A DNA stretch of 64,000 nucleotides from a bacterium. Lineage in GTDB: Bacteria > Electryoneota > JAOADG01. The first letter of the stretch is position 1; each line of letters begins with the position of its first letter. A program made the translations under genes and the position numbers. The notes below the pieces were generated by a model. It saw only the letters and a list, made by a program, of their open reading frames with translations. It was not told the origin of the DNA and searched no databases. Location of the stretch: assembly GCA_963681965.1 (NCBI GenBank), contig OY820579.1, positions 3,808,001-3,872,000 on the forward strand. Reading direction: 5' to 3'. Positions 22,571-33,082 of this stretch are shown here, one piece after another.

Positions 22571-25246
22571 TTACTTCATGAAGATTACTTTTTCGGTCTT
22601 GACAGTATGACCGGCAGTCATCTTGATAAAGTACACGCCACTCGCCAATCGGTTCGGACGCCAGGTAATACGCTGCTCGCCGGCATTGAACACGTTGTCG
22701 ACCAACGTGCCAACTTCCTTACCGGTGATGTCGTATGCCTTGATCGTTACGCGATCGCGCAACGGAATGGCAAATCGAATCGTGGTGTACGGATTGAACG
22801 GATTCGGATATGCCGGCTTCAACTGATAGGTCGAAACGACACTCTTCGTCGGATTTTCATTCACACCGGCAACGATATTGTAAGTCTGCCAAGTGATATC
22901 GCTCACCGTAGGATCGCGTTGAATCGAAATCCGGAACTTCACGTTAGTAGCATTCAAGTACGATTCATCCCAACGCCACATCATCGTATCGTTGGTAATC
23001 GGCGCTGTATTGATCAGCGACCACTGACCATTCGGATAATTGCGCATGACTTCGATCCGGACGGTGTCGGTCGTACGAATATCGCCATTGGTAGTGGTGT
23101 CGATATAATCCCACTGCAACGTGACGGGATTCGTCAAATATGAATTGGAAGGAAAGACCAATCGAATCGTTGCCAACGATAAATCGCGCGGTGCGTCGTC
23201 GGAAGAAATAATGTCGCTGACATTCGTATTGGCAAGCAGCGTAATCCGGAACCGGACACGCAGCAAGTTGTATTCTTCTTCGAATGCCCACGAGTAAGTC
23301 GTGTCGCTCGCCAATGGCGTGTCGATCAATTCCCACTCGCCGTCGGGATAATCGCGATTCAATTCGAGTTTGACATGGCAAGTATCGGCAATACGACGAT
23401 ACAACCAATTGAAGGTGATCGGGTTATTCAAGTACAAGCCGCCGGCAGGACCGGTAAAGCGCAAAATCGGCGCATTCGGGTCGAACCGATAACTGCAACG
23501 TAACGGCGGATAGTCCGGATACGTCAACGTGGCGGTGCTGTGAATGGCACTGCGTGCCACCGACGTCACGTATACTTGATTTTGCGTCCAGTCGTTCGCA
23601 AGCGGCGAACCGGTCTGCTGACCGTCGATCCATGCCGAACCACCGGAACGATCGTCGATGTACATAATGTAAAGCGAGTCGTTGTCGACCACTTCCGGCA
23701 TTGACGGCCAGATGCGGCTGTGCGCCGAACCGGATGCCGCACCGGCGTTATTCGTCGTGTCGGTAACCGGAGTCGGTTCATACCAGGTGGCACCGTTGTC
23801 GACCGAGTGCGTGACCCAGATATTCGCGCAAGCGTAACCGTTGGCGCTGGTGTCGACTTCGGAATCCTTGTTGCCGTACTGCGAATAGGCACAATACAAT
23901 TCGTTGTTGGTCGCAACCGAAATGCTCATGCGGTCGATCGTCGTGCGATATTCCTGACGCCAGCGTGGCGGCGTACGTCCATCGTATACAATCGGCCACC
24001 ACCAACCGTCGGCGACGATCGAGAAAGTATCGGGAGCGGCACTTGACCAGTGATACATATAAGTCGGCATAAATTCGACGCGCCATACCGGCGGAACGCG
24101 CGGTCGGACAGTCGTGTCGGTGGACAAGTCTTCCAGGAACCGGTTGACGGTGAAGACGATGTGCAAGTTGTCGTTGTTGTCGTAAACCATTGCAGTCGCA
24201 TTGAAGAAGCGGAACGTATCGCCTGCTGCCCAAAGCGTGTCAAGGTTTTCCGACTGCGTGAAGCGATCCCAGTTCCAGACGCGGAATTTCGTGATATTGT
24301 TGTGCAGCGTATCGTCGAAGTTCCATGACGCGCCGCCATCGGTCGACTGCGCAGCCCACAAGTCGTTGTTGTAATCGCTCACGAGGAAGCCGCTCCAGCC
24401 GTGCAAATCTTCGTAACCGCCGGGAATGGCGGTTTGCGGCCATGCGACTGCAACTTTATTGGAAATGCGCGAAGTCGCCATCGCATACGACGGCATGAAG
24501 CAACGGAATGCATAGGAGAATGCGGACGGATTCGATTGATTGGCATCGGTACGGCTGTAATAAATACGGGCGTATTCAATATTTCTGCCACCGTCTTTGT
24601 TGCGTGCGAACATGTGTCCGACATTATTGCGATCCATCGCAACGCTCGGCCAGTTGATCGAGTCGTTGGGAAGTGTCGCGGGATTCGGAATAATTTGAGT
24701 TCGGAAACCGGAAATCTGGTAGTCTTCGTCGACTGCGATCAGCGACATGAATCCGGGAGGGTTGCCGGTCGGTTCGTGTGCACCGATCACGGCGCGACCG
24801 TCGGTCAGTATTTCCTGCTGGCTGAAGCCGGCACCGGCTGCGACTGCAGAACCGGGGATCGACCATGCGCCGTTCGGCGGTTCGCGGAAGTTGTAAGAGA
24901 CCACGCGGTCGGTCGAGCTATTCGGCGTGCGGTGGTTCATCCACGATGTGTGAAGACCGCCCATCGTGTCGCGTTGGATCAGACGGTTGTGGGAACCGTA
25001 TGAGAAAAAGTCGGTATAAGTAGTACCAATTTGCACCGTCGAGTTGACTTCGTCGACTGACCGTACCGGACCAACGGGTGCCGGAGGCAGTGGATGATTC
25101 AACGGAACCGGCGCTGGATCCTGTAATAGTTGGCGCGACATCGACGGAGTACGGGGATCGCTGAGATGCTGTTTCCGTACGCCGAACGCTACTGCAACCA
25201 ATCCCAACACCAACAGCACTAACACTATCTTAGCTGGTATTTTCAT
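22571..25246 (-). CDS. Secreted BNR/Asp-box protein with T9SS CTD, paralog 5
   Basis: 891 aa, closest to paralog 4 (same GAAAGGAGTTATCATG start context); YPNPFN...KVIFMK. Confidence 0.9.
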   Translation of the reverse strand: MKIPAKIVLVLLVLGLVAVAFGVRKQHLSDPRTPSMSRQLLQDPAPVPLNHPLPPAPVGPVRSVDEVNSTVQIGTTYTDFFSYGSHNRLIQRDTMGGLHTSWMNHRTPNSSTDRVVSYNFREPPNGAWSIPGSAVAAGAGFSQQEILTDGRAVIGAHEPTGNPPGFMSLIAVDEDYQISGFRTQIIPNPATLPNDSINWPSVAMDRNNVGHMFARNKDGGRNIEYARIYYSRTDANQSNPSAFSYAFRCFMPSYAMATSRISNKVAVAWPQTAIPGGYEDLHGWSGFLVSDYNNDLWAAQSTDGGASWNFDDTLHNNITKFRVWNWDRFTQSENLDTLWAAGDTFRFFNATAMVYDNNDNLHIVFTVNRFLEDLSTDTTVRPRVPPVWRVEFMPTYMYHWSSAAPDTFSIVADGWWWPIVYDGRTPPRWRQEYRTTIDRMSISVATNNELYCAYSQYGNKDSEVDTSANGYACANIWVTHSVDNGATWYEPTPVTDTTNNAGAASGSAHSRIWPSMPEVVDNDSLYIMYIDDRSGGSAWIDGQQTGSPLANDWTQNQVYVTSVARSAIHSTATLTYPDYPPLRCSYRFDPNAPILRFTGPAGGLYLNNPITFNWLYRRIADTCHVKLELNRDYPDGEWELIDTPLASDTTYSWAFEEEYNLLRVRFRITLLANTNVSDIISSDDAPRDLSLATIRLVFPSNSYLTNPVTLQWDYIDTTTNGDIRTTDTVRIEVMRNYPNGQWSLINTAPITNDTMMWRWDESYLNATNVKFRISIQRDPTVSDITWQTYNIVAGVNENPTKSVVSTYQLKPAYPNPFNPYTTIRFAIPLRDRVTIKAYDITGKEVGTLVDNVFNAGEQRITWRPNRLASGVYFIKMTAGHTVKTEKVIFMK

Positions 25247-25898: not shown

Positions 25899-27080
25899 TT
25901 ATTTGGAATATTTATTGCGCAGAATCTTCGCCGCTTCTACTATCTGGCGGAGCTTTGCTGTGGCGGTGGCATCGTCGTTGACACAGCGATTGGAGAAGGT
26001 CCCGAAACCGCAATCGGGATTGAGGAAAATCTTTTCCGGTGGGAAAAATTCCAGCGCGCGTTCGACGCGCTGCACGATCGTAGCGACCGGCTCGATATCG
26101 TAGCCGCGCGGATTCACTACGCCCAGCCCCAATTCGCGACCGCGTAATTCCTGAGCGACTGCCGACAATTCACCCGCCCGCGGCGTGGCAAATTCCAGCA
26201 CAAATTGATCGACATTCATCCGCGCCAGTGCCGGTGCAAGCGGTGCATAATCGCCCGTGAGCAACACCTCGTCGCAACGACTCCAGTTGCCACGGCAAAT
26301 ATGAATCCCCGTACGAATCCCGCTCACCCCGTGTACCACACGGTTGATCAGTTCGACAGCGTAGTCGAGTTCCGCACCCGCGTCCCGGCGGGTCGCCAAC
26401 GTCGCTCACATGAAAGTGCGGCGATCCTTCTCCTTCGAGAGGATGACTTCCGTCAATACCGGTTCGTCGAATTGCACCATCGCACAACCGGCATCGCGCA
26501 GCTCCGTCAATTCGTCGTGCAACATCGCTACGATGTCGTCCGCCATGTCGGTTTTGTCGCGATACGCCGATTTCGAATAAGCGGTCACCCACATCGAGCG
26601 CGTCAACAGATACGGTCCGGGCAATGTCGCCTTCACCGGTAAATCGGTGAGACTCGCAACATACTCGAATTCGCGCACCGCCAACGGTTCGCGCCGCGAC
26701 AGCTTACCGGTACAGGTCGGATTCCGAATCGCCGACGCCGGTACATCCAGCGTCGCCAACATCTCTTCGAATCCGGCTTTGTCCTCGACGGTATCGAGCA
26801 TATCCGCCAGCGACATCAACGCCGCGCCATCCACCCGCTCGGTCAGGAACGAATAGAAATTGTCGCGATGATGTTCGCCATCGACCACCAAATCGACGCC
26901 GGCATCTTCCTGAATCCGAATTGTCCGCGCAATTTCTTCACGCGCAATCTGCTCGAATTCCGGAGTCGCCAGTTTCCCGACGCGACGATCGCGCAACGCG
27001 CGCAACATCTTCTCGGACCGGATCCACGAACCGACTTGTGTCACTGGAAATAGCGGTAGTTTGCGTGTTGCCGTCTTCAT
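25899..27080 (-). CDS. Core (single-domain) cobalamin-independent methionine synthase II / MetE-like Zn enzyme; probable selenoprotein with Sec at codon 225 (393 aa)
   Basis: ORFs 26406-27080 and 25899-26399 are in the same frame, separated only by TGA (RRTFM*ATLA). Motifs TQVGSW.R, QEDAGVDLVVDGE, KATLPGP, QFDEP, IHICRGNW, LEFA and LNPDCGF span both parts. Confidence 0.88.
26376..26393 (-). promoter_or_regulatory. Putative bacterial SECIS element
   Basis: The mRNA reads UGA-GCGACGUUGGCG-ACCCGC-CGGGAC-GCGGGU: a perfect 6-bp stem, a 6-nt loop with G at position 2, and 18 nt between UGA and the loop. Confidence 0.75.
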
Positions 27081-27823
27081 ACCACCACCATCTTCGTTGT
27101 GAGTTCAGTTGCTTTCGCGAGCGTCGTTGCCAATGGTGAGCGCCGCAGTGTATCGTCCCACGCTCCGCGTAAAATTTTCTCGTCCGCGAAACTGGTGACG
27201 TAACACTTCAACTCGATTGCCGCGAACGACGGATCGCCGTCCTCGCTGCCAAGATGCGCCATGACATTGTGCAGTCGTCCGTTGACCGTGATTTCGACAT
27301 CGTCGACTTCCAACTGTCGTCGCGAACAGGCACCGAAGTAACCCGTTGCCAAATCGCCTGCAAGTGCTGACAGTAGGTATTCCACCGCCGACGGATGCGC
27401 ATCGCGTTCTTCGAAACTGGCGGCTTGACCGATGTCGAGCGCGAAGTTGCGAAAGTACGCGCTGCTCTTCTGTCCGCCGGTTGATCGTACCCGTACGCGC
27501 CATTCATAGGCTTTCGCACGTTCGCGATCGGCTGCCAGTTGACACGCTTCCTCCGCGGCGATTTTCGCACCGCGTCGCACGAAGTAACGCATGGTCCGTT
27601 CACCCGGAAGACTTCCAAGGAACTCGTGACCGACCATCCGGCACCACGGCGGTAAATCGTCAGCCACCGTCGATTCGCTGCTGCGCATTTCGAGGATGCC
27701 GTCCACCGGTACGCGAAGCATCGCTTCCCGGATCAACAGCACCAGTCCCGAACCGCAGTCGAGGTCGCCGCCATCGAACAGGTGATCGGCGTTCAAAGTA
27801 CGGAGTGTCGATTCATCCAGCAT
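27077..27823 (-). CDS. TusA/SirA-like sulfur-carrier domain fused to OsmC-like domain
   Basis: FDGGDLDCGSGL...DDLPPWCRMVGH (TusA-like), then PSAVEYLLSALAGDL...RRSPL (OsmC-like); ATGA overlap with the MetE-like gene. Confidence 0.85.
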   Translation of the reverse strand: MLDESTLRTLNADHLFDGGDLDCGSGLVLLIREAMLRVPVDGILEMRSSESTVADDLPPWCRMVGHEFLGSLPGERTMRYFVRRGAKIAAEEACQLAADRERAKAYEWRVRVRSTGGQKSSAYFRNFALDIGQAASFEERDAHPSAVEYLLSALAGDLATGYFGACSRRQLEVDDVEITVNGRLHNVMAHLGSEDGDPSFAAIELKCYVTSFADEKILRGAWDDTLRRSPLATTLAKATELTTKMVVV

Positions 27824-27829
27824 GATGTA

Positions 27830-28195
27830 TTAGTAGCACACGCAGGGCGAACCGTTCGACAGCCATTCGACCAATGCCGCGCCGCCAGCCGGTTGCGCGC
27901 CTGCGATCAGCATATCGTCGGTGATGTTCCGCTTCTTCATACACGGTGTGCAGACATAAATCTTGCCGCCGCCGTTGACGAATTTTTCGATCAATTCGTT
28001 CAAGGGCAGGAACGGAGCACCGGCATTCACTTTCGCCGCTTCCCCTTTGGCAGCTGCCCAGACGCCATCGGCACTCAAAAACACCATCGTGTCTTTTTCG
28101 CTGCCGAGAGCCGCATTCGCAACCACAAAACCGAGGGTTGCCTTGTCTTCGTTGTCGTGGGTATGGGTAATACTCACACAGAAGGTCTTGCTCAT
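27830..28195 (-). CDS. DsrE/DsrF-like sulfur relay protein
   Basis: Start MSKTFCVS via ATGA overlap; VFLSADGV and GGKIYVCTPCMKKR motifs. Confidence 0.88.
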   Translation of the reverse strand: MSKTFCVSITHTHDNEDKATLGFVVANAALGSEKDTMVFLSADGVWAAAKGEAAKVNAGAPFLPLNELIEKFVNGGGKIYVCTPCMKKRNITDDMLIAGAQPAGGAALVEWLSNGSPCVCY

Positions 28196-28443
28196 TCGTT
28201 GTCTCCTGATTCGGATTTCTTTTGAATCAAATAGAATGGGTGTTGCTTGATCAGTAGTGCGTTGCCCGTCGACCAGCACCACGCCGGAATATCGATGCCG
28301 GCTCCGCTGTCGAGTGCGCGTACGCATACTTTCGGCGAACCGGACAGCGTCTTGAAATACGCCAGCAGGTCGCAGATCAGCGTGCTGCAACTCTTGTCGC
28401 CGCCGTCATAGGTAACGTCGTATTGCCAATCGTCGGGGTACAT
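28192..28443 (-). CDS. Small TusA/SirA-like protein
   Basis: MYPDDWQYDVTYDGGDKSC...ALDSGAGIDIPAWCWSTGN, paralogous to the N-domain of 27077-27823. Confidence 0.8.
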   Translation of the reverse strand: MYPDDWQYDVTYDGGDKSCSTLICDLLAYFKTLSGSPKVCVRALDSGAGIDIPAWCWSTGNALLIKQHPFYLIQKKSESGDNE

Positions 28444-28834
28444 CGAAAATTCTCGAAAGAAACAAGAGGATGAATGTAGTGGAGAGAATTGCAAATCGAA
28501 AGTCGAAACATTCTTCTGCAAAAAATATTGTGTAAGGAATAGTCAATACTAAACACGCACTACTACCGTGTGAATTTAATTCCAGCGAATATCACGAATT
28601 CCGTTCGCGAAGCGGGACGCGAGTGTTTATTCCGATCATTTTACCGTCCTCGAACATACCTCTTCGACGCCTGGAGTCGGCTCCAGAAGTGCCGCAGTTC
28701 ATTGTTTCGCGTGCAAATAGTTTTTTGCGCACTGATCCGATGGGCAATAATTCTAAGACCTGTTTGCTGAGATCGATCTCTACTCGCGTATCGATGTCAT
28801 TGCGATTCTAATCGAGGATGTGTGAAAATATTCT

Positions 28835-29926
28835 TTACGACAATCCGAGCACACGCCCGATTTTCCGGAAGCTGACGAATTTGAAGACCCACTGGATCTT
28901 CGCAAATATGCTCCCCTTCATTGTTAGAAAGCGGATGCCCATCAACAGCACCAGAATCACCGTCAACACGAGTCGCACCAAGCCGTTGTGCGACACCGTG
29001 AAGCGCTCGTAATCGAATTTCTTCGGATGACTCACCGGCGGCAATTTGGGATCGCGGAATTTGACCCATGCCGGCAATTTGATTTCCGACTTGTCGTACA
29101 CATTCGGCAGCGGAACGGCGAAATTGAAAAAATTCTGGAATAATTTTTCTTCGTCGATTTTCGGATTGATCTTGCTCGATTGGTCTTTCCAGATCACCAC
29201 CATCAGGTCGGCGCAATCCGGTTCGTATGGTTTGCGCTCCGCCAATTTCGGAATCAGTTTTGCCGCTTCGTCGCGGGAGATCTGCGTTTCATCCATCATG
29301 CCGACGATCTTGCTGGCATTGAGTGTCTCGACATTGCTGCCGAAAATGGCGCGGAAATCGTCGGGATGAAAATAAGTGCGTTCGGCATGACTCTTGTCGA
29401 GATCGCGCAACGACATGCGGCACCAGCGCTCGGTGGTGTAGGGGCTGCATTCCAGCGTCGTGATCACCACCGCCTTGCGGGCGACGCGATATGCTTCCAT
29501 CAGACCTTGTACCGGATCGAACAGGTGCTCGATCACTTCGCTCAAAATCACGATGTCGATACTGTTGTCTTCGAAGGGGAGTCCGTGAATGTCGGCGGGT
29601 AGTGCCGGAATGGAAAACAGCTCGTTGCAGCGCGTGCACGCGTTGTCGGACAATTCGGTCATGATTGAATCGATGCCGAGGAATTTCTTTGCCAGTGCCG
29701 CGATATACCCTTCGCCACCGCCGATATCGACCAGCGTCGAACCATTGATCCGGTTCAACTGCTGGAGAATCGCATAAGCGATCGTCATCCGCATGGTGTG
29801 GTTGCGTTCGGACGGTTGGACACCGAAGCCGTAGATCGGGCGATGCGCCTCATAGCGACCTTCGGCGACACCGCGGTCGTAGCGTTCGTCGAGCCATTTT
29901 TTGGTAACGGTGGTGTATTCGTTCAC
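28835..29926 (-). CDS. Class I SAM-dependent methyltransferase
   Basis: LVDIGGGEG motif I and ADIHGLPFEDNSIDIVILSEVIEHL; C-terminal hydrophobic helix. Confidence 0.87.
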   Translation of the reverse strand: MNEYTTVTKKWLDERYDRGVAEGRYEAHRPIYGFGVQPSERNHTMRMTIAYAILQQLNRINGSTLVDIGGGEGYIAALAKKFLGIDSIMTELSDNACTRCNELFSIPALPADIHGLPFEDNSIDIVILSEVIEHLFDPVQGLMEAYRVARKAVVITTLECSPYTTERWCRMSLRDLDKSHAERTYFHPDDFRAIFGSNVETLNASKIVGMMDETQISRDEAAKLIPKLAERKPYEPDCADLMVVIWKDQSSKINPKIDEEKLFQNFFNFAVPLPNVYDKSEIKLPAWVKFRDPKLPPVSHPKKFDYERFTVSHNGLVRLVLTVILVLLMGIRFLTMKGSIFAKIQWVFKFVSFRKIGRVLGLS

Positions 29927-30124
29927 GGATACTCCCGGTTAGATCAGAAATTCGCTGCCGATCAATCAATCAGTGCAATATATACTAGATCAAAGTATAT
30001 TTCCAGCGATTGCGCGGCGTCAGAATGAGATACGAATAATTTCAAACCGCGCACCATTTTGTTTGTAAACAGACTCTGCCGGTCGTATAATAATTCCGAT
30101 ACCAGCTATCCGACCGGAGCCGCC

Positions 30125-33082
30125 ATGACTTTCCGCCATCGCAGATTTCCACAATCAATGCTCGCTTTTGCGACGACACTCGTTTTCGCTCTGTCGTTTT
30201 TGCTTTCATTACTCCCGCAACGAACATTTGCCGTGTCGGTGCAATCGACACGCCTTCCGCACCCGTTCCAGTTTACCGAGAACAAAGGGCAGTGGGATTC
30301 CGCCGTCCTCTACAAATGCGAGGTGCGCCGCGACGGATTCACCTGGTTCCTTGAGCGCGATGGTGTCACCCTCGTCACGAGTGTAATTGATTCCTCAAAA
30401 ACGATAGACGCCAGTAGGGGCGGCTCCCCGCGGACGCCCGCAAGCGGCAACGACGTTGCCGCCGTAGGGGCGTATGGCATACGCCCTGATCATGAATCCT
30501 TTCCATTAAAATCTCACGCGCTCAAATTTAAATTTGTCGATTCCCGTAGGGGCGAACCACAAAGTGCTCGCCGAAGGCAATCGCATTCGCCCCTATCTGT
30601 TCAAGATGCTCTCACTTGTCGTTGCGAGGAACGCAGCGAAGGATCGTCCGCCGCAGGCGGAAAGCCGCAGCGAAGTGACGAAGCAACCTACTCTTTAAAT
30701 GAATCAAAGACACAGGAGGAGATTACCTTCGGTGAGCCCTTCGGGGTTGCTTCGTCATTCCACTTCGGAAGTGCTTCGCACGTTCCTTCGTTCATTCCTC
30801 GCAAATACAAAATCAGGATTCAAGATACAAGATTAGGGCGAATGCGATTCGCCCCTACAGAAAAATATTCGACACAAGAGGAAGTCGGAATAAATTCCGA
30901 CCTACCCTTCGCGCAAGCGAAGTGGATCGACACACAAGGCGAACTTTCGTGGCACAATAATTATTTTCTCGGGAATGATTCGTCGAAATGGGCATCGGAT
31001 TGTCGCAACTTTACCCGCGTGGTATATCATGATGTCTGGGAGGGTATCGATGTTGAGTGGTATGAGAGCAAGGGACATCTCGAATTCGATTTCGTCGTGC
31101 ATCCCGGTGCCGATCCCAAGCAAATCAAGATGGTATGCGAAGGGTTGGAAGGAGATATTCTTTTCCGTAGGTCAGGTTTTAACCTGACCTCTTTAAACAC
31201 AAACTCTCAAATGGTCAGAATAAATTCTGACCTACAGTTACAAGATGAACTTTCGCTTCCCACTTCCCTCGGTGAACTACGGATGTCGATTCCGGGCGCA
31301 TACCAAACCACTGCAAATGGCGCTCGTGGAAACGCTGTCACGGCACAATTCACAATCGTGGCAGAAAATCTCTTCGCGATCGATATGCCAAATGGGTATG
31401 ATCCAACCCTAACGCTCCGAATCGATCCGCTGGTGTATAGCACATACATTGGCAGCTCTGGCAGCGACGATATTCGTGGTATTATCGTTAACAACGATAA
31501 TACTTGTATCGCTACGGGAATTATTATGGGAGATCCCCAAAATTTCCCAGTAACAGCCGGCGCTTTCGATACTACTCTGAATGGAAGCGACGATTGTTAT
31601 GTCTTGAAACTGAACAGCAATGGGACGCGAATTGTCTTTTGCACAATCATCGGCGGTAATAGTATTGATAATTCATGGGGAATTTCCAGTGATGGAAACA
31701 ATGGTGCTATTATCACAGGTGTAACTTATAGTTCGAATTTTCCGTCGACAAATGGAATTCGGTTGTGGGGTGGGAGTGATTTCTTTCTTACTCGAATTAA
31801 TAATACCGGCTCTCGATTGATTTATAGCACATTCTTCGGTGGATCTGATTGGGATTATGCATATGGATTAATGGCAGATGGAACTGGAGGAGCGATTGTG
31901 TGTGGTTTAACATCTAGTGTCGATTTTCCGATAATTAATGAGGGCTTTGATACAAGTTACAACGGTAATTGCGATGGTTTTATAACCCAAATCAATAGTA
32001 GTGCAACCGATTTTACTGTCAGTACTTATATCGGAGGTTCCTCTTATGATGGTATATATTCAATTTTTCGCGACGATCATTCAATAATTGTCACTGGAGA
32101 AACCAGTAGTAATGATTACCCAGTCACATCCTCGGCATTTGATACTTCGTACAATCGGATTAGCAATGATACGATGGATTGTTTCGTTTCGCGCTTCGAT
32201 CTTGCCGGTGATCATTTACTAGCGAGTAGTTTTTTAGGTGGAAATGGAAATGATATCGGTTACAGTGTAATTAGCGATCATAATGGCAATCCATTCGTAG
32301 CAGGATTCACAACAAGTCCTAGCTTTCCGGTTACGTCAGGTGCTATGGATACTTCCTATAGCGATTTTTCGGGTTTTATTACAAAATTCGATACAACTTT
32401 ACATGCTTTAGAATTTAGCACTTTTTTATGTGGCGCAGGAGGTACTTCGATAGTGAATGACCAACGTGATGGGCTGTTTATAACTGGTGGTGCAGTTTCG
32501 TCATTTGTCACCACAGAGGGAAGTTTCCAACCAAATTATAATGGTGGTATCAGGGATTGCTTCATCGCACATCTTGACTCGACTGGTAGCAGAATGATAT
32601 ATACTTCATTCTTAGGTGGTTCTTCTACCGATGGTGGTACATCAATTGCTTATCTTGGAAATGGTAATCTCGTTATCGGGGGACTAACGAGTAGCAACAA
32701 CTTTCCAGTTTCAAGCAGTGCATTCGATACTAGTTATAATGGAGGCACTAGAGATGCTTTTATTTCCTATTTACATTTCGATACGCTAGAAGTATTACCC
32801 ATTTCCAATATCCTTCCGTCTTATTATCGTCTAGAGCAAAATTACCCGAATCCCTTCAACTCCACCACCTCACTCTCCTACACTCTCCCAATCTCATCTC
32901 ACGTTGATCTTCGTCTCTACGACCTGATGGGGCGCGAAGTTACTACGCTGGTGCAACGCGAACAAATTGCCGGAACCTATCGCGTGTTGCTCGATGGTTC
33001 GCACTTGGCGAGTGGAACCTATTTCGTGCGATTGCAAGCGGGTGCGTTTTCGAAAACTCAGAAGATTGTGCTGTTGAAATAA
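30125..33082 (+). CDS. Secreted SBBP-repeat beta-propeller protein with T9SS CTD, carrying three in-frame REP-like insertions
   Basis: GGAG RBS plus signal peptide; FTENKGQW, NYFLGND..KW, IDPLVYSTYIG, repeated G.T.S..FPVT..AFDTSYNG; NYPNPFN...KIVLLK. Confidence 0.88.
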   Translation: MTFRHRRFPQSMLAFATTLVFALSFLLSLLPQRTFAVSVQSTRLPHPFQFTENKGQWDSAVLYKCEVRRDGFTWFLERDGVTLVTSVIDSSKTIDASRGGSPRTPASGNDVAAVGAYGIRPDHESFPLKSHALKFKFVDSRRGEPQSARRRQSHSPLSVQDALTCRCEERSEGSSAAGGKPQRSDEATYSLNESKTQEEITFGEPFGVASSFHFGSASHVPSFIPRKYKIRIQDTRLGRMRFAPTEKYSTQEEVGINSDLPFAQAKWIDTQGELSWHNNYFLGNDSSKWASDCRNFTRVVYHDVWEGIDVEWYESKGHLEFDFVVHPGADPKQIKMVCEGLEGDILFRRSGFNLTSLNTNSQMVRINSDLQLQDELSLPTSLGELRMSIPGAYQTTANGARGNAVTAQFTIVAENLFAIDMPNGYDPTLTLRIDPLVYSTYIGSSGSDDIRGIIVNNDNTCIATGIIMGDPQNFPVTAGAFDTTLNGSDDCYVLKLNSNGTRIVFCTIIGGNSIDNSWGISSDGNNGAIITGVTYSSNFPSTNGIRLWGGSDFFLTRINNTGSRLIYSTFFGGSDWDYAYGLMADGTGGAIVCGLTSSVDFPIINEGFDTSYNGNCDGFITQINSSATDFTVSTYIGGSSYDGIYSIFRDDHSIIVTGETSSNDYPVTSSAFDTSYNRISNDTMDCFVSRFDLAGDHLLASSFLGGNGNDIGYSVISDHNGNPFVAGFTTSPSFPVTSGAMDTSYSDFSGFITKFDTTLHALEFSTFLCGAGGTSIVNDQRDGLFITGGAVSSFVTTEGSFQPNYNGGIRDCFIAHLDSTGSRMIYTSFLGGSSTDGGTSIAYLGNGNLVIGGLTSSNNFPVSSSAFDTSYNGGTRDAFISYLHFDTLEVLPISNILPSYYRLEQNYPNPFNSTTSLSYTLPISSHVDLRLYDLMGREVTTLVQREQIAGTYRVLLDGSHLASGTYFVRLQAGAFSKTQKIVLLK
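30414..30486. repeat. Intragenic REP-like insertion 1
   Basis: GTAGGGGCGGCTCCCCGCGGACGCCC and GTAGGGGCGTATGGCATACGCCC. Confidence 0.8.
30546..30905. repeat. Intragenic REP-like insertion 2 (360 bp from GTAG to CTAC)
   Basis: Modules match intergenic repeats at 13140-13300 and 63605-64000; ends GTCGGAATAAATTCCGACCTAC. Confidence 0.88.
31167..31235. repeat. Intragenic inverted REP pair (REPIN-like, 69 bp)
   Basis: GTAGGTCAGGTTTTAACCTGACC ... GGTCAGAATAAATTCTGACCTAC. Confidence 0.85.

Follow-up and report, generated by a model that had tools for sequence, protein, structure and literature searches.

We examined a 64,000 nucleotide stretch (hereafter, the window) of contig OY820579.1 from genome assembly GCA_963681965.1, which belongs to a bacterium of the phylum Electryoneota. 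The minus strand of the window carries a gene for a MetE-like protein that, read conventionally, appears as two open reading frames (ORFs). The first (27080..26406, stop included) comprises 224 codons and ends with the peptide RRTFM before a TGA, while the second (26399..25899) encodes 166 amino acids in the same frame, with this one TGA (26408..26406) between them. Translation of the TGA as selenocysteine (Sec, U) joins the two into a single gene (25899..27080, minus strand, 393 codons plus a TAA stop) whose 393-residue product carries U225 within the motif RRTFM-U-ATLATRRDAG. A preliminary description of the window had pointed to the lone TGA in RRTFM*ATL, and had proposed that read-through restores a 393-residue MetE-like protein with the motifs IHICRG and PDCG. 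Both points held: the read-through product is a member of the Meth_synt_2 family in which these motifs contribute to a predicted zinc-ligand set of H260, C262, E296 and C357. This gene comes last in a tight cluster of four on the minus strand, referred to here as the cassette.

The read-through protein matched the Pfam family Meth_synt_2 (PF01717) across residues 11-385 (E 7.5e-39). Ten NCBIfam methionine synthase models also matched, all at scores far under their cut-offs. The best of these, the archaeal-type PRK04326, gave 185 bits compared to a cut-off of 406, and the MetE equivalog TIGR01371 gave 127.1 bits compared to 929.95, aligning only through its C-terminal barrel (profile positions 421-754). 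None of the selenoprotein models in NCBIfam release 20 matched the protein. The nearest solved sequences and folds were the C-terminal barrels of two-barrel MetE proteins (phmmer E 5e-30; Foldseek TMq 0.71-0.74, at ~24% identity). By both phmmer and Foldseek, the single-barrel structures 1YPX and 3RPD were farther away than two-barrel MetE; 3RPD, the structure of MesD, was matched by phmmer at E 2.5e-17 with 19% identity. An AlphaFold2 model of the protein, based on 55 aligned sequences, had a pLDDT of 85.9 and a pTM of 0.89. Taken together, the profile matches and the model point to a single-barrel, zinc-dependent enzyme with the fold of the MetE catalytic domain, an assignment that we grade jointly with the overall explanation developed below and, like it, consider likely.

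The residue found in homologs at the position of the TGA bears directly on how this codon is read. Among the best 120 full-length database homologs (57-64% identical), column 225 contained Cys in 119 and a gap in the remaining one, and never Trp or Gly, while the surrounding R221-T-F-M-C-A226 was nearly invariant. These findings agree with the preliminary description, which had expected homologs to read TFMC at the UGA column. Within a sample of 61 genomes of the phylum, a close ortholog was present in eight. Three of these possess the TGA, namely the host, a congener (G001, 72% identity) and a second member of the same family (G003, 67%), and five genomes from another family of the phylum, with orthologs 52-54% identical, encode HTFMC instead.

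The TGA is not confined to this phylum. The DNA pattern R-T-F-M-TGA-A-[AT]-L-A-x-R matched at least 119 species genomes, and we assembled a Sec-form set of 83 sequences from the 80 loci listed among these matches together with three relatives. All 83 examined loci proved to be MetE-like genes that keep the TGA, in answer to the check for TGA in other genomes that the preliminary description had suggested, and in each the frame remains open past it into the zinc motif H.CRGN. By record title, the listed loci fall into at least 14 named phyla, with Thermodesulfobacteriota (22) and Planctomycetota (19) in the lead, and cultured carriers include Desulfobulbus alkaliphilus DSM 24258 and Desulfopila aestuarii DSM 18488. 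In a metagenome collection, the DNA pattern for RTFM-TGA-ATLATRRDAG matched at least 120 contigs, whereas the same pattern with a Cys codon (TGY) in place of the TGA gave 0 matches, indicating that the peptide following the Sec codon is tied to the UGA. Cys forms mostly read AALAARKDPAEE over this stretch. A downstream peptide linked to the UGA in this manner is as expected if an RNA structure holds its codons.

These same data speak to the view that the UGA simply terminates translation, and that the locus is a pseudogene or a pair of separately translated half-genes. Public databases record the N-terminal piece as a stand-alone protein for six of the eight that we looked up (that of D. alkaliphilus is a RefSeq "hypothetical protein", and that of D. 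aestuarii a "Cobalamin-independent synthase, Catalytic domain"), and in the window a TTG located two codons past the TGA represents a possible start. However, the Leu codon corresponding to this TTG begins with C (CTN) in 70 of the 83 sequences and is therefore not a start codon (ATG, GTG or TTG), and no other start precedes the zinc ligands in the downstream half. Termination likewise fails to account for the retention of the TGA in every examined gene from at least 14 named phyla together with a conserved, open downstream half bearing the zinc ligands, for the lack of TGY matches compared to at least 120 TGA matches with the same downstream peptide, or for the frozen synonymous sites of the stem described below. 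Furthermore, two assemblies agree on the TGA base. We regard termination as highly improbable.

Even more improbable is that an amino acid other than Sec (Trp, Cys or Gly) is inserted at the UGA through a reassigned code or near-cognate decoding, a formal possibility with nothing specific in its favor. Of the 26 window ORFs with at least 250 amino acids, 13 end in TGA, more than in either other stop (TAA 8, TAG 5), and TGA terminates the TusA-like and TusA-OsmC genes of the same operon in ATGA overlaps (28195..28192 and 27080..27077, respectively), upholding the argument of the preliminary description that TGA is an ordinary stop elsewhere in the window. The occurrence of Cys, rather than Trp or Gly, in homologs, and the presence of both a full Sec machinery and a hairpin of the selenocysteine insertion sequence (SECIS) type, argue against this possibility as well. 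As regards the accuracy of the sequence, the 83 Sec-form sequences rule out a sequencing error at the TGA. Logan contigs from two runs belonging to two studies (X1 and X3, the only runs bearing on the TGA, as the contigs of X4 and X5 do not cover 26211-26421) contain the whole gene without difference, TGA included, although they are possibly the assembly's own source; the TGA thus also stood in the comparison with read data that the preliminary description had put forward.

Downstream of the TGA, a 12-nt spacer, GCGACGTTGGCG (26405..26394), leads into a putative SECIS hairpin (26376..26393, minus strand). Its 6-bp stem is formed by ACCCGC (26393..26388) and GCGGGT (26381..26376; GCGGGU in the RNA), which enclose the 6-nt loop CGGGAC (26387..26382), so that the loop starts 18 nt past the UGA. 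This is the perfect stem, at the same spacing and with the same loop, that the preliminary description had reported and called SECIS-like. The hairpin was present in both the minimum free energy (MFE) and the centroid structures calculated using ViennaRNA, and the 18 nt alone fold with -9.8 kcal/mol. A published model of bacterial SECIS elements (bSECIS; PMC13188914) calls for a loop of 3-9 nt, a stem of 4-16 bp, a G in the first two loop positions, a distance from UGA to loop of 16-37 nt and an MFE of at most -7.5 kcal/mol. With a loop of 6 nt, a stem of 6 bp, a G at loop position 2, a distance of 18 nt and -9.8 kcal/mol, the hairpin falls within each of these limits, in support of the SECIS-like character first ascribed to it.

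Conservation of the hairpin across species provides the stronger evidence. Of the 492 cells that the stem columns make up in the 83 sequences, 95.5% are paired; sliding the 3' arm by 1-3 columns lowers this to 29-49%. The third codon positions that lie within the stem (Thr, Arg, Ala and Gly codons) are C in 81, C in 79, G in 80 and T in 68 of the 83 sequences, whereas in the 12-nt spacer all four 4-fold sites vary freely (e.g., G49/C20/T9/A5 and C38/G17/T16/A12). A fold in the same register was observed for 80 of the 83 sequences, and loop positions 2-3 are G followed by G or U in 79. The three exceptions (L051, L057 and L076) are all Bacteroidota; their hairpin is shifted, and has -8.7 to -15.1 kcal/mol when folded within 45 nt. 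In these three loci the shifted hairpin, which was seen in the stretch of 48 nt after the TGA, has a 7-nt loop, and the peptide is altered too (ATLATRSDA...), so that it looks like a lineage-specific SECIS variant.

Profile searches of the host genome using curated cut-offs identified each component of the Sec machinery, as the preliminary description had suggested they should: selD (336.7 bits; cut-off 125), selA (481.4 bits; cut-off 267.9), selB (363.6 bits; cut-off 242.25) and a tRNA-Sec (selC; 63.8 bits, cut-off 47) with the anticodon tca. Likewise, selA was found in all five of the Sec-form genomes tested. The MetE-like gene therefore resembles SelB-decoded genes with an fdhF-type SECIS, such as those for FdhA and SelD, in that an in-frame UGA stands where homologs have Cys, the hairpin is located within the coding region, its loop standing 18 nt past the UGA with G-G/U at positions 2-3, and selABCD are present. 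Taken together, these findings indicate that the TGA at 26408..26406 is very probably a Sec codon and, as far as can be judged from the sequences, the insertion mechanism used by the family is the ordinary bacterial one. According to this model, the hairpin located 12 nt downstream would recruit SelB together with Sec-tRNA(Sec), enabling the ribosome to make one 393-residue protein.

Two further observations concern the machinery itself. The host selD gene (C1:4177383-4178309, minus strand) appears to encode a selenoprotein, as it contains one in-frame TGA (...GFSDCAG-U-AAKIGP...) with a long hairpin directly after it (-19.4 kcal/mol over 60 nt). In addition, many relatives in the phylum sample (e.g., G006, G007, G012, G017, G021, G025, G029, G033 and G037) have two selA matches above the cut-off.

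The relationship between the Sec and Cys forms was analyzed in a tree built with FastTree from 125 Cys forms and from the 72 Sec forms that were complete, the other 11 of the 83 Sec rows being omitted for incompleteness. Both the Sec column and the columns encoded by the SECIS were removed from the underlying alignment, and the root is not secure. The Sec/Cys label changes at least seven times on this tree, with six changes forced by well-supported branches, and under the insecure root the Sec forms make up a grade with Cys clades nested inside. Since the hairpin has practically the same sequence everywhere, the economical reading would be a single origin of Sec followed by several replacements with Cys, although with the root insecure we do not claim this. 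Repeated interconversion of Sec and Cys is a feature that the MetE-like family shares with known selenoproteins.

Table 1 of a recent catalog (PMC13188914, May 2026) lists 119 families and subfamilies of prokaryotic selenoproteins, and contains no entry for MetE-like proteins, PF01717 or methionine synthase, consistent with the statement in the preliminary description that MetE-like proteins are not among the classical selenoprotein families. The main text of the BSepDB paper (PMC13326102) does not contain the word "methionine"; its family list, Table S2, could bear on novelty. In the full-text literature, paywalled papers aside, we came across no description of either a MetE-like protein containing Sec or the cassette. 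One report considered as a possible prior description (10.1101/2021.03.15.435355) was set aside because, in the portion available, it concerns metH only. The MetE-like family thus appears to be a real, widespread and uncatalogued selenoprotein family. Selenoprotein families are few, and are dominated by redox proteins of the thioredoxin fold. In contrast to most of these, which possess thioredoxin-like folds and UxxC or CxxU motifs, the MetE-like proteins would bear their Sec in RTFMUA with no nearby Cys, and a widespread family built on a zinc-dependent alkyltransferase barrel would extend Sec to a new chemical setting. There are practical consequences as well. In hundreds of genomes, annotation pipelines render the MetE-like gene as a "hypothetical protein" plus a fragment, which affects reconstruction of methionine and sulfur pathways in sulfate reducers, Planctomycetota, Acidobacteriota and others. 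The SECIS, nearly identical across phyla, offers a convenient search handle, and occurrence of the Sec form in two cultured, non-pathogenic strains makes the question directly testable.

We used a HMMER alignment to Thermotoga maritima MetE to locate the predicted active site. H260 and C262 (IHICRG), E296 and C357 (PDCG) align to the zinc-ligand positions of this enzyme, and S18, E69, D205 and W164 also align to MetE residues; all eight are invariant in the 55-sequence alignment. We take the MetE counterparts of S18, E69 and D205 to bind the amino and carboxylate groups of homocysteine, the counterpart of W164 to be the Trp that stacks on the pterin, and the four ligand positions to coordinate zinc. 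The protein accordingly resembles the C-terminal barrel of MetE (T. maritima 1T7L/1XDJ and Neurospora crassa 4ZTX) with respect to the zinc set H-x-C, E and C, to S18, E69 and D205, and to W164. It differs from MetE in comprising one barrel and 393 amino acids rather than two barrels and ~750, the sequences being ~24% identical, as well as in its insert with Sec/Cys225, in the conservation of C123, and in the three cysteine carriers that are encoded alongside.

The segment containing U225 (residues ~218-233) has no counterpart in MetE in the same alignment, and is on this basis a family-specific insert, ~14 residues long, in the loop that follows the DEP strand. C123 is invariant in all 72 Sec rows and all 120 Cys rows. 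Residue 225 would be additional to the zinc ligands, as originally proposed, all four of which are kept. Its invariance as Cys or Sec, its predicted placement on a mobile loop at the face of the active site, and the three carriers with cysteine pairs encoded alongside suggest a role in catalysis or turnover rather than in structure. The use of Sec would in turn single out residue 225 as a key, catalytically important residue of the four-gene cassette.

The remaining three cassette genes precede the MetE-like gene on the minus strand. The first (28192..28443) encodes a small TusA-like protein of 83 amino acids with C-G and P-x-W-C cysteines. It is followed by a gene for a DsrE-like protein with an invariant C-x-P-C (27830..28195), whose ATG overlaps the TGA stop of the TusA-like gene, and by a gene for a 248-residue fusion of TusA-like and OsmC-like domains with invariant LDCGSG and PPWC cysteines (27077..27823), whose TGA stop overlaps the ATG of the MetE-like gene (ATGA). 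Pfam recognized DsrE (PF02635; E 7e-16, 58.8 bits compared to a cut-off of 22.7) and OsmC (PF02566; E 1e-8), while the match to TusA was weak (18.1 bits; cut-off 28.6). NCBIfam scores for these neighbors were under the cut-offs for TusA (24.5 compared to 78 bits) and TusC (17 compared to 94), as well as for the OsmC-related (seleno)protein model. At the thresholds used, neither Pfam nor NCBIfam gave a hit for the 83-residue protein; we refer to it as TusA-like because it resembles the TusA half of the fusion as well as hits in other loci. In contrast to the TusA/DsrEFH relay, then, the neighbors score under the NCBIfam cut-offs, and they conserve cysteine pairs within motifs of their own, namely C-x-P-C in the DsrE-like protein and C-G and P-x-W-C in both TusA-like domains. 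We observed no TGA at the cysteine motifs of the three carriers in the loci examined. The DsrE-like C-x-P-C is spaced like the UxxC motif that Table 1 of PMC13188914 gives for DsrE-like selenoproteins.

The frequency with which these neighbors recur was measured by tblastn, using the three window proteins, across 87 loci (the 83 Sec-form loci minus the window's own, plus five distant Cys-form loci). The TusA-OsmC fusion was detected in 78, the DsrE-like protein in 67 and the small TusA-like protein in 59; many of the misses involve loci in which the Sec codon lies close to the end of the locus, or in which the neighbor hit is truncated. When all ORFs of the 83 loci were clustered, every other gene family was found in at most ~10, excepting antisense shadow ORFs within the cassette genes, and no Dsr, sHdr or tRNA-thiolation genes recurred nearby. 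The lack of any other recurring family argues that the cassette is a self-contained module in changing surroundings. One variant was seen in a Planctomycetota genome (L118:2550-3251, plus strand), in which a TusA-like protein encoded downstream of the MetE-like gene is extended at its N-terminus by a long Cys-rich stretch containing motifs of the CGGCS...C and C..C types.

Retention of the four zinc ligands, the three homocysteine-site residues and the pterin-stacking Trp suggests that the substrate bound on the zinc is a homocysteine-like amino acid. Most likely, the zinc would activate the thiol or selenol of this amino acid for alkyl (methyl) transfer. Sec225, on the mobile loop at the active-site face, would serve as an extra nucleophile or redox center, possibly paired with C123, and would exchange sulfur, selenium or reducing equivalents with the TusA-like, DsrE-like and TusA-OsmC carriers, with selenium making this exchange faster than it is in the Cys forms. 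We advance the combination of zinc-activated thiol or selenol transfer with an exchange of sulfur, selenium or electrons between U225, perhaps together with C123, and the carriers as a tentative model. Bolder, and in our opinion rather speculative, is the idea that Sec225 acts as the catalytic nucleophile of a new reaction on the MetE scaffold. With the help of selenium (or cysteine), a C-S/C-Se or S-S/Se-S bond would be formed or cleaved on a homocysteine-like amino acid bound to the zinc, and a private relay of the three carriers would deliver the sulfur, selenium or electrons. If this were true, the four-gene cassette would constitute a self-contained new pathway for sulfur or selenium amino acids in at least 14 bacterial phyla, and the zinc alkyltransferase class would gain its first selenoenzyme in the MetE-like protein.

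Considered as a whole, the favored explanation, in which a selenoprotein works by the proposed MetE-fold mechanism, is in our view likely to be correct, but several observations weigh against it. With respect to the hairpin, the 71-nt region folds no better than shuffled sequences (z 0.44; 134 of 200 shuffles were at least as stable), and folding energy alone is therefore not evidence; the case rests on conservation of the hairpin across species. Covariation is thin. Seven stem changes preserve pairing through wobble and two are double-sided (A-U to G-C and C-G to A-U, each in one sequence), and 5 of 500 shuffles reached the observed double-sided and wobble values. True covariation is sparse because the hairpin is nearly invariant, and freezing of synonymous sites is the stronger signal of the two. 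A scan of 26200-26500 gave no Rfam match at E values up to 10; bacterial SECIS elements are poorly modelled in Rfam, and we treat this null scan as uninformative. With respect to function, the loop bearing U225 is the lowest-confidence part of the AlphaFold2 model (pLDDT of 62 and 56 for residues 211-220 and 221-230, respectively). C123 is replaced by Val in the five distant Cys-form orthologs, and hence a U225-C123 pair would not be universal. The cysteines of the OsmC domain are not conserved, and the carrier role follows solely from gene order and translational coupling. Finally, the host possesses a full-length MetH (1064 bits), so that a need for the MetE-like enzyme in methionine synthesis is not evident.

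The question of methionine synthesis is central to a different interpretation of the selenoprotein, according to which it is a cobalamin-independent methionine synthase isozyme whose Sec/Cys225 and carriers only protect or re-reduce the oxidation-prone zinc-thiolate site, with no share in the chemistry itself. The protein keeps the homocysteine-binding residues, the zinc ligands and the pterin-stacking Trp of MetE, the host lacks a canonical two-barrel MetE (a MetE-like query gave only one match in its genome), and many bacteria keep MetH alongside a B12-independent enzyme. In contrast, MetH is present not only in the host but, above the cut-off, in six of the seven other ortholog-bearing genomes, the match in G001 being cut by contig ends. 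The scores of the protein are far under the cut-off of every NCBIfam methionine synthase model, and gathering-threshold scans of the window and of 28 of the 80 loci detected no SAM or cobalamin riboswitch, returning one tRNA only. Moreover, we know of no MetE with a dedicated, co-inherited set of three cysteine carriers. An isozyme of this kind is, in our estimation, unlikely. Because the host also has MetH, the MetE-like protein is probably not its housekeeping methionine synthase.

We separately rejected the MetE-like enzyme as sole methionine synthase, given MetH in the host and the ortholog-bearing relatives. Among relatives from two other families (G006, G007, G033 and others; e.g., G033:C7:32129-34513), MetH-like matches of ~520 bits correspond to frames of ~800 amino acids with one in-frame TGA inside, which could be either a Sec protein or two adjacent genes.

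A further comparison is provided by the core methionine synthases MesA-MesD, as described in the main text of Price et al. 2021 (PMC7857596). Like these enzymes, the MetE-like protein has one barrel of the MetE type and lacks the N-terminal folate-tail domain; like MesD with MesX, it has accessory proteins encoded nearby, on which it would by analogy depend. Unlike MesA-MesD, its accessory genes encode cysteine carriers rather than DUF1852 or corrinoid proteins, and the main text of that paper mentions no TusA, DsrE, OsmC or selenocysteine. No MesX (DUF1852, PF08908) was found in the host genome, in a search that was weak, as control genomes gave no signal either.

It is also conceivable that the cassette handles selenium, with the zinc binding a seleno-amino acid or methylated selenium, and Sec/Cys225 and the carriers passing selenium on toward SelD. 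A preprint (PMC10418091) proposes demethylation of methyl-selenium by unrelated methyltransferases of the UroD superfamily in Sec-using anaerobes, and selA was present in all five distant Cys-form genomes tested, as it was in the five Sec-form genomes. However, selA was found above the cut-off in 57 of the 61 genomes of the phylum sample, and with a near-ubiquitous selA the co-occurrence of cassette and Sec machinery is uninformative. In addition, the host cassette lies hundreds of kb or more from selD, selA, selB and the tRNA-Sec, and no sel gene recurs among the neighbors of the 83 loci. We consider a selenium-handling module to be quite unlikely.

The surroundings of the cassette contain a few further features. 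A promoter-like site upstream of it (28546..28574, minus strand) has 9 of 12 consensus positions, and is weak evidence, as four sites of that strength occur in the region compared to 2.2 expected from shuffles. An ORF of 363 amino acids (28835-29926, minus strand) lies upstream, ~390 nt from the cassette, and contains a Gly-rich VDIGGGEGY stretch, which we take to be of the SAM-dependent methyltransferase type; methyltransferase-like ORFs recur in only 5 of the 83 loci. The region is bordered by genes for two very large proteins predicted to be secreted (22571-25246, minus strand, and 30059-33082, plus strand), whose C-terminal tails (…NPFNP.T.I.F…), judged by eye, may resemble the sorting domains of type IX secretion.

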